DNA from: Candidatus Woesearchaeota archaeon
GTDB taxonomy: Archaea; Nanobdellota; Nanobdellia; Woesearchaeales; GW2011-AR9
Reading direction: 5' to 3'
DNA: 51,423 nt
NCBI GenBank assembly: GCA_018303285.1
Contig: JAGVYL010000019.1
Location: 1 to 51,423 of the forward strand
Under the pieces are notes generated by a model, which was not told the DNA's origin, did not search any database, and worked only from the letters and a program-made list of their open reading frames with translations. This document shows, piece after piece, positions 22,140 to 49,902 of this stretch (position 1 is its first letter; each line of letters starts with the position of its first letter). A program made the translations under genes and the position numbers.

Positions 22140-22272
22140 TCCCCCCTCCCGGACTCGAACCGGGGATTCCTCGGTGACTATTGGCTGACTGAGTTTCATT
22201 CAGAGCATTTGTGCTTCGTCCCTCAGCGCATAAAGCTACAGCCGAGTGTTCTAGCCACTAAACTAAGAAGGA
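22140..22272 (-). tRNA. tRNA-Tyr(GUA) with a 60-nt intron after position 37
   Basis: Cloverleaf: acceptor tccttct/agggggg (three G-U pairs), D arm gttt-agtggcta-gaac, anticodon stem ctcgg/ccgag with loop cuGUAg..a, T arm cccgg-ttcgagt-ccggg. The D arm closely resembles archaeal tRNA-Tyr. Confidence 0.7.
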
Positions 22273-25109: not shown

Positions 25110-25202
25110 GCTCCGGTGGTCTAGCTCGGCCAAGGACACAGCCCTTTCAAAGATAAGAACTAGAGAAAGGCTGTAACCCGGGTTCAAATCCCGGCCGGAG
25201 TA
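25110..25202 (+). tRNA. tRNA-Glu(UUC) with an 18-nt canonical intron
   Basis: gctccgg/ccggagt acceptor, D arm gtct/ggac, anticodon stem cagcc/ggctg with loop cuUUCa[18 nt]a, T arm ccggg-ttcaaat-cccgg. Close to archaeal tRNA-Glu consensus. Confidence 0.9.
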
Positions 25203-25782: not shown

Positions 25783-27965
25783 TTACGCCCCGACCATCGC
25801 GTCAGTCAGTTTCTTCCTCGTCTTGATTTCCTGCACCACTCGGGTTTGCAGTTCGAAAGGCAGCTTTTCGAAGCTTTGGTCGACCAGTGAAGAAACTCCT
25901 CGGCCTTCTGTTGCGCTTCTTAATTCAGAACTCCACCCCAGCATATTCATTACCGGCATCTTTGCTTTGATAGCCACCTGATGCTCTTCTTGTATCAAAT
26001 CAAGCAATTGACCTCTCATGCTGGTCACTAATTTAGTCAATGTTCCAGTATATTCTGAAGGAGCTTCAATTAACATTACCTGCAACGGTTCGTATAAGAC
26101 TGCTCCACCAGTCATCATTGCCCCCCGAATACCTTCACGGATAGCGGGATAGACCTGAGCCGGACCTCGATGGATTGCATCTTCATGCAGTTTCATATCT
26201 ACCAGATTAACTTTTACTTTGATGCAGGGTTCTCTTACTAAAGGACCATGGCGCATTACTTCTTCAAACATGTCCAAGATTAATTCTATCACTTCGTGCA
26301 TATAGACTTGGCCTTTAGTTTTATCCAAAAACAGATTGCCTTGATAGATATCCTTCACTTGATCTGCTTCTTTAGAATCCATTCCTACTGCCATCAAGGA
26401 TTCTCTTAATTCCAAATTTTTCTTTTTTGTTTTACCTTCTTGGATTTTTCCTTCTTTGATAGCGGTAGAAATCTCTTCAGAAAGCGGCTCCACAGTAAAA
26501 TAAAATTTGTTATGCTTATTGGGAGTCTTTCCTTCTACCTCTTGAGAAAGTTTGGTAAGTGTTTCTCTAAAGACTACAATCGGCTGAGAAGTTTCTACCT
26601 CTACTCCTTTTTCGGTCTTAATTCTATTTTCAATGATTTCCAGATGAAGTTCTCCCATTCCGGACATTAAATTTTCCCCGGTTTCTTCATTTATTTCAAT
26701 TTTAATAGAAGGATCTTCTCGTCCTACTTTTCGCAGTACTTCAATCAGCTTAGGCAGATCCATCTGCTTCTTCGGCTTGATGGCTTTAGTGATAACCGGC
26801 TCAAAGATATGTTTTAACTCTTCAAAGGCCTCTTCCGGCTCGACAGTTACAGTCTCTCCGGCATTGCCTACCACTCCGGAAATAGCTAAAATGTTTCCTG
26901 CCGGCAGACTGTCTACTAATTCTGGCTTGATTCCGTGATAAATGTAAACGTTTTGGATTCTTTGTCTTACTTTGGCATTATTCAGATAAACTTCCATTCC
27001 GCTGCGGATTGTGCCAGAAAACAAACGTCCGGCAGAGATATCTTTTCCGCTGCGCGGGTCAACTACAATTCTGGTGATGACAAAAGCTAATTTTCCGTCA
27101 GGATTAGTAGTCAATAAATCTTTGCCGAATTCGCTTTCCATATCTCCGTGCCAGATGCGGGGGATGCGATATTTTTGGGCATCGACAGGATCAGGATGAT
27201 GTTTGATGACCATATCTAACATTACTTCATAGAGCGGAGCATTTTCCCAGACCCATTTCTTTCTCTCTTCTTCTTCCAGTTCATAAATATGAAGAATATC
27301 CTTGAATCCAATACCTTTTTTCTGCATAAAAGAAAGAGACAATGCCCAGTTCTCTCTTGCAGAGCCAAACGCCACGCTTCCGTCTTGGATGCTTACTTTC
27401 CATTTCTCTGCAAACTGCGGCTCGGCAATTCGTTCTATCAATTTATTAAAATCCATGATTAACTTGATGAATCTTTCTTGAATCTTTTCAGGAGATAGTT
27501 TTAACTCTTTCACTAAACGGTCTACTTTATTGATAAAAAGAACTGGTTTGACTCTCTCTCGAAGAGCCTGCTTGACTACCGTCTTCCCTCTACTGCGCAG
27601 ATAAGGACAACTGTTCCGTCTACTGCTCTCATTGCTCGAGTGACATTGCCTCCAAAATCAACGTGCCCAGGAGTATCAATCAGATTAATGAGGTATTCTT
27701 CACCATGGTAAATGTGAACCATAGAAACATTGGCTGCATCCACCGTCATCAGTCTTTCCTGCTCATCCAAGTGCTGCCAAGTAGCCATACCTTCTTCCAA
27801 ATCTCCTGCGGACTTAGAGGACATCAAACCGGCTGCAGCTAGCAAATTATCTGTTAAAGCAGTCTTTCCATGATGAATATGGGCAGAGGTGCAGATATTC
27901 CTGATGAACTTGGGATTCTTGGTGATTCTGGCCACCTTCTCAATCATTGTTCCAGCTGATGCCAT
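25783..27965 (-). pseudogene. fusA: translation elongation factor aEF-2, interrupted by a frameshift near 27585
   Basis: The N-terminal ORF (27576-27965) holds G1 AHIHHGKT and G3 DTPGH and ends ..AVEGRR*. The other frame continues immediately with [24 protein letters not shown] and the rest of aEF-2, including the diphthamide site HEDAIHRG. The conserved (A/V)MPQT between AVEG and (E/K)TV is missing. Confidence 0.85.
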
Positions 27966-29431: not shown

Positions 29432-29689
29432 ATGGAAGGAAACATTGTTAATTTCCGCCGGGGAAAAAGGACTGTCCATCATTACCAGATGATTATTCGC
29501 ATCAATGGCGTTTCTAACAAAGAAAAAGCTCAGGCCGCCGTAGGAAAAACAATAGTCTGGACCAGCCCGGCCGGCAAGGAACTGAAAGGCAAGATTTCTG
29601 CCCCCCACGGAAGGAACGGCCAGGTACGGGCCATCTTCGAGACCGGTATGCCCGGACAGGCCATCGGCAGCAAAGTCAAAGTTATCTAA
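29432..29689 (+). CDS. rpl35ae: 50S ribosomal protein L35Ae
   Basis: GNIVNFRRGKRT....MIIRINGV..KEKA...VGK.IVW.....K.L.GKI...HG.NG.VRA.FE.G.PGQA.G..V matches the family. Confidence 0.9.
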   Translation: MEGNIVNFRRGKRTVHHYQMIIRINGVSNKEKAQAAVGKTIVWTSPAGKELKGKISAPHGRNGQVRAIFETGMPGQAIGSKVKVI

Positions 29690-29690
29690 T
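29628..29690 (+). repeat. 63-bp perfect direct repeat, copy 1 (last 20 codons plus stop of rpl35ae)
   Basis: gggccatcttcgagaccggtatgcccggacaggccatcggcagcaaagtcaaagttatctaat is identical to 30993-31055. Confidence 0.95.
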
Positions 29691-29704
29691 CGGAGAAAGT
29701 TTCT

Positions 29705-30922
29705 TCAAACAAGTTCTTTTTCAAGGAACTCCTCTAGCGGGAAAATATTTTCTTTTTTCAATGATTTGGTAATCAACCGCAAGATAAATTCCTGATGCTT
29801 TTGACTGAATTTTTTTAGTCCTTCCTCTTCCCGAAGGGGAATCTCATTGCTGGAAGTTACGTTTATCGCAGTTTTTCCTGCTACAAAATCTACTTCCGAC
29901 TCGCCATCTCCCCAATAACTTATTTCGCTATACTGCTCAACAAGTTTTATCAGTACCGCATTTTCAAACATCTGCCCCACGTTTTTGGAATATCTTACTT
30001 GAATGGCGTTTATTAAGCCTAAATCCAAGCAATAAAATTTAGGCAATTTGGCGATGTCATGCCTCACTTTGAGGGAATAGGAAAAAAAAGTTACTTCAAA
30101 CAGCAAGTACGCATCTAGCATATAACTAATGTAAGTTTGTAAGGTATCTTTAGCCAAACCAAACATTTTTGACAGTTTATTTATACTTACTTTTGAGCCT
30201 GAAGCGGCAACTAAATATCTCGCCAATTCCATCACTTGCTTGGTATTTCTTATAGCGTACCGATCGATAATATCTTTATGAATAATATCTTCAAAATACT
30301 GTTGTAAAAGAAAAGTTTTCTTCTCCTCTGATTTTTCCAAGACTACTTCGGGGAATCCTCCATAATGGAAATATTCTTCGGTATTTCCAGAAGGAGAAAA
30401 AAGAAGAAATTCGCTGAAAGAAAGCGGCAGGACTGTGAACGATAGATTTCTTCCAGTTAGAAGAGTGGATAATTCTTTTGAGAGCAACGATGCTGAAGAG
30501 CCGGAAAGAATAAATTTGATATTTTCTCCGAGATCGTATTTTGTCCTGATCCATTTTTCCCAGGAAGAAATCTTTTGGATTTCATCTATAAAAAAATAGA
30601 CTTTTCCCTTATTCTTTGCATACTGCTGGTAAGTATCCAACACCTCATCAAATAGTTCCAGCGTGAGATTATCCGCAAAGCCATAGTCTTCAAGATTTAG
30701 GTAAAGGATTTGTTTTTTATCCTTTCCAGCGTTAAGCAATTCTTCCATCAATTGCCTAAGGAGGGTGGATTTGCCGCTGCGCCTTATGCCCTTCAAAACT
30801 AATACCTCTTTTCTTTCCATAAAAGGCATGATTTTTTTGATGTATTTTTCCCTCTTAACACCCGAGGATATTTTCCTCTCCCAAAGATTCCATTTTTGCA
30901 GTATTTCGATTATCCCTTTCAT
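29705..30922 (-). CDS. AAA-type ATPase with DUF4143-like C-terminal domain
   Basis: Walker A GIRRSGKST, Walker B YFFIDEIQ, and a C-terminal wHTH/restriction-fold-like region. It is a paralog of 48478-49737. Confidence 0.85.
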   Translation of the reverse strand: MKGIIEILQKWNLWERKISSGVKREKYIKKIMPFMERKEVLVLKGIRRSGKSTLLRQLMEELLNAGKDKKQILYLNLEDYGFADNLTLELFDEVLDTYQQYAKNKGKVYFFIDEIQKISSWEKWIRTKYDLGENIKFILSGSSASLLSKELSTLLTGRNLSFTVLPLSFSEFLLFSPSGNTEEYFHYGGFPEVVLEKSEEKKTFLLQQYFEDIIHKDIIDRYAIRNTKQVMELARYLVAASGSKVSINKLSKMFGLAKDTLQTYISYMLDAYLLFEVTFFSYSLKVRHDIAKLPKFYCLDLGLINAIQVRYSKNVGQMFENAVLIKLVEQYSEISYWGDGESEVDFVAGKTAINVTSSNEIPLREEEGLKKFSQKHQEFILRLITKSLKKENIFPLEEFLEKELV

Positions 30923-30944
30923 ACCATGTAACCATTTCCTGTCT

Positions 30945-30975
30945 ATTTATAAAGGTTTCCAATATGTTGGAAACC
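30945..30975 (-). promoter_or_regulatory. TATA box plus adjacent perfect 9-bp palindrome upstream of the ATPase gene
   Basis: tttataaa (minus-strand sense) lies about 25-30 nt from the ATG at 30922. ggtttccaa-tatg-ttggaaacc is at 30954-30975, 17 nt from repeat copy 2. Confidence 0.45.
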
Positions 30976-30992
30976 ATATCAAAAAGCAGATT

Positions 30993-31055
30993 GGGCCATC
31001 TTCGAGACCGGTATGCCCGGACAGGCCATCGGCAGCAAAGTCAAAGTTATCTAAT
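30993..31055 (+). repeat. 63-bp perfect direct repeat, copy 2 (orphan copy of the rpl35ae 3' end)
   Basis: Identical to 29628-29690. No upstream rpl35ae reading frame is attached. Confidence 0.95.
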
Positions 31056-31127
31056 AATTTTCTTTAGAAAGCTAAAACCTTATATACTCCTTCTTATTTA
31101 TTTCGAAGATAAAAGAGAGTGTAACCT

Positions 31128-40927: not shown

Positions 40928-41001
40928 GGGCCAGTCATCCAATCCGGCTAAGATGCCGCCTTCGCAAGGCGGAAATTCGGGTTCAAATCCCGACTGGTCC
41001 A
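40928..41001 (+). tRNA. tRNA-Ala(CGC), no intron
   Basis: Acceptor gggccag/ctggtcc with the G3-U70 identity pair, anticodon stem ccgcc/ggcgg with loop uuCGCaa, T arm tcggg-ttcaaat-cccga. The D stem has one mismatch. Confidence 0.85.
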
Positions 41002-48477: not shown

Positions 48478-49737
48478 TCAAACTGTGTCTAAATTGTAGG
48501 GCAAAATAAACCTAACCGATTTGTCCTTTTTTTGTTTAGATAGATTTATTATAACCCCTTCAACTACTTGGGCGTATGATTCAAGAAAAACATTAAGGCT
48601 CTTCTGATTTTCAAGCTTTAATTCTTCTTTAAACTTAACTTCCAGAGGAATACTCTTGCCGTCTTTCTCCAAAATAAAGTCTACTTCATTAAAATTTTTA
48701 TCCTGCCAAAATCTAATCCCTTTATTGCCCCGCTTAAGCAGCTCTGATAAGATAAAACCTTCAAATAAAAATCCCGAATCATTTCGTAACCTCAATTCAT
48801 TGAAATTATTTATAAAATAATTCCTCACCCCATTATCCAAGAAATAAATCTTTGGTATCTTCACTAATTCTTTGTTTTTATTGGTGTAAAATGGCCGGAT
48901 TTCTTTAATCAGGTACGTTTCGAACAGAACTTCGAGGTATTTTTTTATCTCATTAAAACTCAGGGAAGTTATTTTAGAAATTTCTTCATATTTTATCTTT
49001 TGCCCGTTATTTATCGCTAAAAACTCAATTAATTTTTTAACTTCTAAAAGTTTATTGATATTAAGATATTCCACCAGATCTTTTTTTACGTATAAATCAA
49101 AAATACTCTCTAAAACCAATTTTTTTTCTTCAAGGCTATGTTTTAGGGCGACCTCAGGATAACCTCCAAAAATCATAAATTCTTCCATAAATCGCCGGTA
49201 GTCTTTTAGCGATTGATTTAGCTTATCTCCTTTCAATTTGGAAAGGTTCTTCAGATTGCTGGCTAGTTTGTCCTCATTTTTAAAAGTTAAAAATTCTTCA
49301 AAATCTAAGGGAAATATCTCGAGGATTATTTTTCTTCCGGCCAAAGATTCCTGAATTTGATTTTTTATGGCAAGGGAAGACGAGCCGGAGGCAAAGATTT
49401 TGACATTGGGCAGATTATCATACACATTCTTCATAATTTTTGAAACTGCAGAATACCTCTGGAATTCATCCAAGAACAAATAAAAAAATTCTGTTTGCTT
49501 TTCGCTATATCCGTTAATCTTCAGCAGATTTAAAAGACTCTCAAAAGTGCTTATCTTTTCATAATTGCTTAGGATGTCTAAATCCAAAAACAAGCATTTA
49601 TTTTTAAGAGAGAGCTCCTCAGAAAGCATTTTCAGAAGGGTTGTTTTGCCTACCTGCCTCGCTCCGATTAGCAGGGAAATCTTTCTGTCTTTGGCTTGAG
49701 CTTCCAGTTTTTTCAATATTTTTCTCGTCAATGCCAT
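48478..49737 (-). CDS. AAA-type ATPase with DUF4143-like C-terminal domain (second copy)
   Basis: Walker A GARQVGKTT and Walker B LFLDEFQ. Same architecture as 29705-30922. A 9-bp AT-rich palindrome, tctaaaatt/aattttaga, lies at 49740-49768 just upstream. Confidence 0.85.
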   Translation of the reverse strand: MALTRKILKKLEAQAKDRKISLLIGARQVGKTTLLKMLSEELSLKNKCLFLDLDILSNYEKISTFESLLNLLKINGYSEKQTEFFYLFLDEFQRYSAVSKIMKNVYDNLPNVKIFASGSSSLAIKNQIQESLAGRKIILEIFPLDFEEFLTFKNEDKLASNLKNLSKLKGDKLNQSLKDYRRFMEEFMIFGGYPEVALKHSLEEKKLVLESIFDLYVKKDLVEYLNINKLLEVKKLIEFLAINNGQKIKYEEISKITSLSFNEIKKYLEVLFETYLIKEIRPFYTNKNKELVKIPKIYFLDNGVRNYFINNFNELRLRNDSGFLFEGFILSELLKRGNKGIRFWQDKNFNEVDFILEKDGKSIPLEVKFKEELKLENQKSLNVFLESYAQVVEGVIINLSKQKKDKSVRFILPYNLDTV

Positions 49738-49902
49738 ATTCTAAAATTGCTCTTATTTTAATTTTAGATTAATCCAAAACTTATGTATACTAAATTATAG
49801 AATAACTACTATTTAAACCTTTCGGTGTTTTTGTGTAACAAAAGTCCGCCTGCCGTAGTCTTAAGCTTCCATCTCTTAACAATACTCGAATTATTCCCTC
49901 AT

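Follow-up and report, generated by a model that had tools for sequence, protein, structure and literature searches.

A cassette of one gene stands directly behind the ribosomal protein gene rpl35ae on contig JAGVYL010000019.1 of Candidatus Woesearchaeota archaeon (assembly GCA_018303285.1; the whole 51,423-nt stretch that was analysed is called the window below), flanked by two perfect copies of the 63-bp end of that gene. Comparison with related lineages showed that this is a true insertion with target duplication, which left rpl35ae intact, and that the insertion is old, having occurred in an ancestor and having since been inherited vertically under strong purifying selection. We interpret the locus, with a probability of about 0.62, as the trace left by an old 'insertion with long target duplication'. 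It adds an archaeal case and a new gene family to a known, as yet unexplained mode of gene mobility.

The repeat and the cassette at rpl35ae

The two copies (29628-29690 and 30993-31055) form a direct repeat, identical at 63 of 63 positions, with a start-to-start spacing of 1365 nt, and the bases immediately outside them are unlike on both sides. It is the sole long repeat of the region, and recurrence of a 63-mer by chance is not expected in 51 kb. An earlier note on this DNA, based on the letters alone, had reported a perfect duplication of the rpl35ae 3' end around 1302 bp holding essentially a minus-strand AAA/DUF4143 ATPase gene with its own TATA box. The duplication proved exact, and Pfam and open reading frame (ORF) evidence agreed with one real gene between the copies. 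The description of the repeat as the last 20 codons plus stop needed correction, since it is made up of 2 nt of codon 66 (R66), 19 codons, the stop codon and 1 further nt.

The target gene rpl35ae (29432-29689, plus strand, 85 amino acids; Pfam Ribosomal_L35Ae, E 2e-18) is an intact ORF with its last 62 nt within copy 1, which thus constitutes its functional end; copy 2 is a displaced, non-coding duplicate of this end and lies in no ORF of the rpl35ae frame. The inserted cassette spans 29691-30992 (1302 bp, minus strand). At its 3' edge, a 14-nt spacer (29691-29704, minus strand), homologous to a 13-nt spacer in a sister lineage described below, separates copy 1 from the stop codon of the ATPase gene (29705-30922, minus strand, 405 amino acids; Pfam AAA_14, E 2e-38, and DUF4143, E 7e-21). 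The TATA box of this gene, TTTATAAA (30946-30953, minus strand), recognised by sequence, is situated 23 nt upstream of the ATG and occupies the same place in homologues. Directly against it lies a palindrome, GGTTTCCAAnnnnTTGGAAACC (30954-30975), which most homologues with an identity of 54% or more share, and a 17-nt spacer (30976-30992, minus strand) leads from the palindrome to copy 2 at the 5' edge. Behind copy 2, some 25-30 nt (31056-31085) resemble the post-stop sequence of three related contigs (L093, L193 and L291) and are a remnant of the ancestral sequence downstream of rpl35ae. The G+C content of the cassette (0.34-0.38) is below that of the rpl35ae region (0.44-0.49).

No inverted repeat links the cassette ends, which have no terminal inverted repeats. 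Neither a transposase nor an integrase was found in the cassette or in the 51-kb window by Pfam scans of the window's larger ORFs, in agreement with the earlier note, which had seen a cargo devoid of integrase. A DNA transposon or insertion sequence was considered and rejected on account of the missing terminal inverted repeats and transposase and of the long, variable duplication.

Empty sites and the sister lineage

The unoccupied site for which the earlier note had proposed to look was recovered from three related lineages, on two Logan contigs (L193 and L194) and one JGI contig (L291). All three carry rpl35ae with a single copy of the 63-bp sequence and no ATPase gene; the ancestral downstream gene, which encodes a lipoprotein-like product, begins about 70-90 nt further on. 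Their relatedness to the window is close: the asparaginyl-tRNA synthetase (AsnRS) of L193 and L194 shares 93-94% amino acid identity with that of the window, and the AsnRS gene tail of L291 shows 96% DNA identity. A sister lineage (L093-L096) displays the same arrangement as the window, with an ATPase of 89% protein identity, and in this lineage copy 2 precedes the start of the lipoprotein gene known from the empty-site relatives. Taken together, the empty sites and the sister arrangement identify the segment between the copies as extra DNA, and copy 2 as the original rpl35ae end shifted downstream.

In the window itself, the homology of the right flank to the relatives is limited to about 25-30 nt behind copy 2, and the relatives' downstream lipoprotein gene is missing. 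From about 30 nt after copy 2, a 7.5-kb block (31085 to about 38615) with about ten genes without Pfam matches, including one for a 565-amino-acid membrane protein, stands in place of the 1.7 kb of L291 that hold the lipoprotein gene and two others; no flanking repeats were found around this block.

Near-identical contigs originated from Rifle-type groundwater and sediment metagenomes, and the closest named genomes were metagenome-assembled genomes (MAGs) of Woesearchaeota/Nanoarchaeota. One metagenome holds both an occupied contig (L095) and an empty one (L291), which stem from close relatives. The GTDB species representatives found via AsnRS reached at most 72% amino acid identity and showed no AsnRS-rpl35ae synteny, so that they offered no empty site, and the exact 63-mer had no match among JGI metagenome contigs, where a degenerate core then yielded L291.

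Two of the empty-site contigs have small insertions of their own in the short AsnRS-rpl35ae spacer, namely an MNT/HEPN toxin-antitoxin pair (L194, 1230-1903) and a 79-amino-acid ORF (L193, 590-829), both without flanking repeats. Together with the ATPase cassette, they make the AsnRS-rpl35ae neighbourhood a small insertion hotspot.

Age of the insertion and upkeep of the repeat

The junctions of the window and the sister lineage agree to 1 nt on the side of copy 1 and to 6 nt on the side of copy 2. Between these two lineages, the ATPase gene has a synonymous divergence (dS) of 0.95 and a ratio of nonsynonymous to synonymous divergence (dN/dS) of 0.057, values close to those of the adjacent AsnRS tail (dS 0.78, dN/dS 0.056), which indicates that the cassette diverged together with its host under strong purifying selection. 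Quartet sites in AsnRS and rpl35ae point in the same direction, 25 of them uniting window and sister lineage to the exclusion of L193 and L194, compared with 6 and 5 for the two alternatives. The recency suggested by the perfect copies is therefore not supported, since the sister lineage has both junctions and cassette divergence matches that of flanking genes. The earlier note had reasoned that relatives sharing the arrangement with diverged copies would indicate an ancient fixed duplication; the sister lineage does share the arrangement and the insertion is ancient, but the copies are partly diverged in the sister only.

At a dS of about 0.8-0.95, many differences would be expected in a copy 2 of 63 nt left to evolve freely, and none was observed in the window. 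The last 20 nt of the repeat read AAAGTCAAAGTTATCTAA in both copies of the window and AAGATTAAGATTATTTAA in both copies of the sister lineage, compared with AAAGTTAAAATTGTTTAA and AAAGTTAAAGTTATTTAG in the single copies of L193 and L194, respectively. At least six substitutions that postdate the split are found in both copies of their own lineage; the two sister copies are distinguished by two internal sites and by their 5' edge. Perfect copies despite an old insertion argue that their identity is kept by continuing homologous recombination. A perfect repeat thus need not be recent, the 63 bp having remained identical across about one synonymous substitution per site.

Direct traces of such recombination were found in the sister lineage. 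Its copy 2 (57 nt from TCTTCGAG) and 180 nt of right flank match the empty-site contig L291, which comes from the same metagenome, at 99.2-100% identity, whereas the sequence to the left of the repeat (rpl35ae, spacer and AsnRS tail) is only 92.1% identical, with the last mismatches at rpl35ae positions 213 and 216. This change in identity from copy 2 rightwards places a recombination breakpoint exactly at the repeat. Recombination at the copies therefore occurs, and when cassette-bearing and cassette-free genomes exchange DNA, copy 2 serves as the homologous partner of the rpl35ae end. In the window lineage, the copies may have been homogenised by inter-genome exchange, by conversion between the copies within one chromosome, or by both; the same recombination can also delete the cassette. 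L291 is itself a mosaic, its AsnRS tail resembling the window (96%) and its rpl35ae the sister lineage (95%; L291 1-480 compared with the window and L093), and the dS of rpl35ae between window and sister lineage (0.35) is less than half that of its neighbours. Mosaic lineages and low rpl35ae divergence both speak for frequent homologous exchange among these DPANN populations.

Representation of the repeat in independent assemblies

It is extremely improbable that the repeat is a chimera of the assembly or that it arose by a local tandem duplication that has nothing to do with the ATPase gene. Logan contigs, built at k=31, do break at the repeat, as they would at any repeat; contigs from three other samples (L001, L002 and L006, assembled with IDBA or with MEGAHIT at k141) nevertheless cross both copies with equal spacing, and the empty-site relatives show exactly the inter-copy segment as extra. 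The read depths agree with two genuine copies: in four Logan runs, the 63-nt repeat unitig has about twice the depth of its neighbours (36.4 compared with 16.5 and 16.6 in run X1; 16.3 compared with 7.8 and 6-9.1 in run X2), the cassette has the depth of the flanks, and the cassette unitig measures 1362 nt, i.e. 1302 plus twice 30. The repeat therefore passed the check for an assembly artefact that the earlier note had put forward.

The ratio of cassette to flank depth was about 1 in these k=31 Logan contigs, which are unable to link across 63 bp, and it leaves no sizeable excised or empty fraction visible in the population of the window. An exact look-up of the window's rpl35ae protein returned 23 contigs, all of the same lineage and all with the cassette present. 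From the depth ratio, the cassette is probably fixed in the window population.

Two variants were noted among the near-identical contigs. One sample contained a form of the ATPase gene from which about 41 codons of the winged-helix region are deleted in frame (L007; window 30074-30197), the deletion being bordered by a 12-nt microhomology. A JGI contig (L004) tracks the window to the middle of the ATPase gene (from its position 2321; window 30525) and continues into an unrelated helicase-like ORF; it is either a chimeric contig or a rearranged variant.

Flanking duplications across the ATPase family

Direct repeats were also surveyed around homologues of the ATPase gene in GTDB genomes, by taking the best ungapped repeat between the 490-nt flanks of each locus and counting scores of at least 23 as positive. 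The clade of the window ATPase (at least 42% identity, DPANN archaea) had 6 positive loci out of 49, with scores of 67, 62, 32, 30, 27 and 25, and two further loci reached 17-18. A second clade, to which a paralogue encoded elsewhere in the window belongs, had 6 positives out of 29 (62, 60, 37, 30, 24 and 23), with flanking duplications of 33-72 nt; two Desulfobacteraceae genomes were among them. No positive was found among 306 virtual 1.2-kb intervals (one scored 17), and one among 215 real ORFs of 300-500 amino acids from like contigs. The family total of 12 of 78 loci, with repeats of 16-94 bp, is thus to be compared with 1 of 521 for the controls (Fisher p 7e-7 against the ORF control and 1e-10 against both pooled). 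When the search was confined to the regions upstream of the palindrome and downstream of the stop codon, L116 (16 nt) and L152 (14 nt) became significant as well.

The duplicated sequences range from 14 to 94 nt and are mutually unrelated: ten repeats share no motif, and no k-mer of 8 nt or more is common to three or more of the ten. Their targets differ as well. The 3' end of a gene for a 721-amino-acid protein is duplicated at L097, and the duplications at L151 and L155 fall within the last codons of two other genes, for which the cassette provides a new stop. At L157, the duplication runs across the start codon of the enolase gene, the ATG being lost in the upstream copy, and at L117 it covers the 5' region of a divergent gene. 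The placement of the repeats relative to the cassette is more regular. Within the window's clade, the gap between the end of the upstream repeat and the palindrome is mostly 15-35 nt (101 nt at L120), the downstream repeat mostly starts -2 to +14 nt from the stop codon, and no conserved sequence was found at the cassette edges across this clade. The same architecture at unrelated sites indicates that this ATPase family is habitually acquired in this manner, and the recurrence of flanking duplications gives substance to the minimal one-gene cassette suggested by the earlier note.

The longest duplication (94 nt, 59 of them perfect) was observed at L120 (3889-4866), where the cassette adjoins a gene of the defence-associated Fic family. 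A second pair of occupied and empty sites was not obtained through this neighbour, as the Fic gene had no near-identical relatives. The single positive among the real-ORF controls was the adenylosuccinate lyase gene purB in L066 (1364-2890), which stands directly behind AsnRS, between two copies of a 34-nt stretch of the AsnRS 3' end. MAGs with two ATPase loci contain members of different subclades, and several near-identical copies were present in no genome. Viral contigs held only relatives of at most 35% identity, so that no vehicle was found there.

The ATPase and its promoter

The ATPase matches the PADLOC model PDC-S01 (PDLC04787, E 4e-100) and COG1373, with an AAA_14 domain followed by DUF4143; it had no match in PHROGs or NCBIfam. 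Its AlphaFold model (confidence score pLDDT 87) comprises an AAA+/STAND-like NTPase, a helical domain, a winged helix and the C-terminal DUF4143 domain. The nearest solved folds according to Foldseek were Apaf-1/CED-4, RFC, RuvB and Cdc6/Orc1, and 2fna was the only entry of the PDB retrieved by sequence (E 0.002).

DUF4143 has been classed as a PD-(D/E)XK domain (PMC3424549). The modelled C-terminal domain follows the alpha-beta-beta-beta-alpha-beta order that such a domain should have, and the Pfam match to DUF4143 ends at profile position 145 of 160. When this domain was submitted to Foldseek in isolation, DdmD, Bax1, SfsA, I-Bth0305I and VRR-NUC were retrieved at E-values of 0.3-1, which are not significant. 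Of the expected active site, E320 and D345 are kept, and the (D/E)xK residues are replaced by N354-V355-T356, conserved in 29 homologues. This replacement makes it unlikely that the window ATPase is a classical nuclease.

Each subclade possesses a palindrome of its own, perfect or nearly so, that adjoins the TATA box or follows shortly behind it (loci L097-L164 and L248-L282): GGTTTCCnnTAnnnnGGAAACC in the subclade of at least 54% identity to the window ATPase, TTCGGAATATATTCCGAA at 48-50% identity, GTTTGTATTGCAATACAAAC at 43-44% identity and TTTTAGAnTAATCTAAAA in the clade of the paralogue. The half-sites co-vary between subclades together with the protein, and this joint change makes the palindrome a candidate operator for the protein's own winged helix. 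It is probably bound by the ATPase in the way known for controller proteins of mobile restriction-modification genes. Most likely, the protein is an NTPase of the defence or addiction type that binds DNA and regulates its own gene, and the short distance from TATA box to ATG would make its mRNA leaderless or near-leaderless. None of the RNA runs contained the locus.

Mechanism of the insertion

In the favoured reading, a self-contained 1.3-kb cassette consisting of the clade-specific palindrome, the TATA box and one ATPase gene entered one base past the rpl35ae stop codon in an ancestor, and the event duplicated 63 bp of target, so that copy 1 completes the gene and copy 2 is its displaced original end. 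We infer that incoming cassette-bearing DNA was joined at two offset positions of the target, either through repair of staggered or separate breaks or through homologous crossing-over at one end combined with illegitimate joining at the other; the target sequence between the joints would then flank the insert on both sides. Neither an integrase nor a transposase would take part, and no enzyme encoded by the cassette would be needed. Offset joining is proposed because duplication lengths vary, a motif is missing, borders of conserved genes are preferred and purB is bracketed by a like duplication. Several points weigh against this reading. A pair of occupied and empty sites is at hand for one site only, and elsewhere the duplication is deduced from repeats alone; about 80-85% of the homologues have no detectable flanking repeat. 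The duplication around purB, where no ATPase gene is present, suggests that the route may belong to the host and not to the cassette. The mosaic lineages mean that the four-taxon tree, and with it a single ancestral insertion, is not watertight, and lineage-matched copies would likewise be expected if insertions at this spot had arisen independently or by lateral transfer. The act of insertion was not observed, its mechanism being an interpretation of the junctions, and we know of no system in which the mechanism of long target duplication has been demonstrated experimentally.

Two other explanations were weighed against offset joining. The earlier note had seen in the repeats the attL and attR of a site-specific integration. 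The locus would then be an integrative element, either minimal or reduced from a larger one, with an attP that carries a copy of the rpl35ae 3' end; an integrase acting in trans would move it in and out and so keep its repeats identical. The target is indeed the 3' end of a gene that remained intact, both lineages share the site with nearly the same junctions, and the sister copy 2 equals the native gene end of L291 while copy 1 has two differences and another post-stop base, as would fit a gene end supplied by the element. We nevertheless consider this quite unlikely. Repeats of 14-94 bp at ten other loci have no common core, and some of them lie at the 5' end of a gene, for instance at the enolase start at L157; no integrase gene was found in the cassette or among the larger ORFs of the window; the depth of the cassette, equal to that of the flanks, gives no sign of free copies; and the cassette diverged in step with host genes. 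Moreover, integration into an L291-like genome would have left both arms equally related to L291, whereas in the sister lineage the left arm is 8% off and the right arm identical, which is the signature of homologous exchange. Somewhat better placed, although still doubtful, is a self-mobilising element in which the ATPase breaks its target with the nuclease-like C-terminal domain and so drives its own insertion. It would account for the enrichment of duplications in two distant clades, in archaea and in Desulfobacteraceae, for cassette edges so close to promoter and stop codon, and for the absence of duplication around the two other small insertions at this locus (MNT/HEPN in L194 and the 79-amino-acid ORF in L193), and the assignment of DUF4143 to PD-(D/E)XK is in its favour. 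It is opposed by the conserved N-V-T in place of (D/E)xK throughout the window's clade, by the non-significant fold match to nucleases, by the lack of genomes with several near-identical copies (two-locus MAGs holding different subclades), by the distance of the window and sister cassettes from their nearest other relative, which is only 72% identical, and by the purB duplication, achieved without the ATPase.

Implications

With insertion by long target duplication as the preferred reading, this very common candidate for a defence gene seems to travel by a route that works without an integrase and is little known. The mobile unit would be a promoter with its operator and one gene, able to enter beside housekeeping genes without a recombinase and with a long target duplication of variable length, and the family supplies many natural insertion junctions for working out how this happens. 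A further-reaching proposal, which we regard as unlikely, is that PDC-S01 genes with their palindrome-controlled promoter are autonomous one-gene mobile elements whose ATPase provokes the offset breaks or joins. If so, the flanking repeats would later serve loss, amplification and re-entry by homologous recombination; archaea and bacteria would have in common a transposition-like mechanism without a transposase; and the abundance of PDC-S01 among 'defence' genes, as well as its embedding in other operons, would be accounted for.

The paralogue and the surroundings of the cassette

The second DUF4143 ATPase gene of the window (48478-49737, minus strand) encodes a protein of 419 amino acids that is 27% identical to the cassette ATPase and retains, according to Pfam and motif analysis, a canonical EVDF...LEVK nuclease motif. 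Its palindrome, TTTTAGATTAATCCAAAA, lies at 49762-49779. The earlier note had suggested that other DUF4143 genes of the genome be inspected for duplicated gene ends, and had placed this paralogue next to a tRNA gene; no flanking repeat was found around it in this genome, and its neighbour turned out to be the gene for the alpha subunit of a tRNA synthetase, PheRS. According to ARAGORN and Rfam, the only tRNA genes of the window are at 22140-22272, 25110-25202 and 40928-41001. The first two (133 and 93 nt) were detected by Rfam only and missed by ARAGORN in bacterial mode; they probably contain introns.

The window is otherwise ordinary chromosome, with genes for NDK, TruD, TrmB, eRF1, RFC, PhoH-PIN, aEF-2 and AsnRS, as well as a Toprim primase-like protein, PRPP synthetase and both PheRS subunits (alpha and beta). 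Within the aEF-2 gene, 16 nt (TCTGTCTGAGGCATGA) are missing at 27583/27584 by comparison with L001 and L003, which splits this essential gene into ORFs of 129 and 576 amino acids. Since contig L002 begins exactly at this position, a faulty assembly join in aEF-2 is likely.

Comparison with known systems

In PADLOC, PDC-S01 is a candidate for an anti-phage system made up of a single gene (Payne et al. 2024, bioRxiv 10.1101/2024.01.29.577857). PMC12988326 describes an ATPase fused to a PD-(D/E)XK-type domain, recognised because it is embedded in other defence operons and very abundant in archaea, ranks it fourth in frequency among the candidate defence systems of prokaryotes, archaeal genomes holding about 10,000 copies, and treats its antiviral protection as candidate only, with no experimental validation for the family. 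The window ATPase differs in that it stands among housekeeping genes instead of in a defence island and belongs to a clade without the (D/E)xK residues. The mode of movement of PDC-S01 is not addressed in the searched passages of the two sources.

Elements with an integrase that occupy the 3' ends of tRNA or protein genes resemble the present locus in that their repeats rebuild the 3' end of the target and leave the displaced end behind the insert. They differ by their integrase and common att core, while the repeats studied here vary and some of their targets are 5' ends. Free-standing homing-endonuclease ORFs of fungal mitochondria reportedly carry a duplicate 3' end of the invaded gene (attributed to Paquin et al. 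1994). Here too, a single selfish ORF stands behind a gene and the duplicated end keeps the host gene whole. In the fungal cases, however, the duplicated ends are diverged copies and the site-specific endonuclease is proven, whereas the window ATPase has a degenerate nuclease motif and its family diverse targets.

The closest parallel is found among restriction-modification genes. Insertion with long target duplication is said to have been first described by Nobusato et al. in 2000 (Gene 259:99), and nuclease-driven self-insertion of restriction enzymes is a proposal of Kobayashi's group. Long, variable target duplications around bacterial restriction-modification genes without mobility genes were later documented by Furuta, Abe and Kobayashi in 2010, with repeats that often overlap gene 3' ends and no archaeal case (PMC2853133). 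The authors proposed DNA breakage by the encoded nuclease, and most of their cases were from naturally competent species (PMC2853133). Judged by titles and abstract openings, none of the papers found to use this term dealt with archaea or with the PDC-S01 family.

The locus described here agrees with those cases in most respects: the insert is absent from a relative that aligns on both sides (for only about 25-30 nt on the right flank of the window), the repeats exceed 30 bp (63/63) and match a single-copy target in the empty-site contigs, no mobility gene is present in or beside the insert (Pfam, window's larger ORFs), repeat length and sequence vary from event to event (14-94 nt, no motif), and the repeats stay substrates for later recombination. 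It departs from them in its cargo, a single PDC-S01 ATPase gene instead of a restriction-modification system (the latter being a feature of their screen), in its DPANN archaeal host, in the family-wide occurrence of the pattern (about 15% of 78 loci), which is not scattered, and in the age of an insertion whose repeats have been held identical by recombination. A 25-year-old observation on bacterial restriction-modification genes is thereby extended to archaea and to another gene family.

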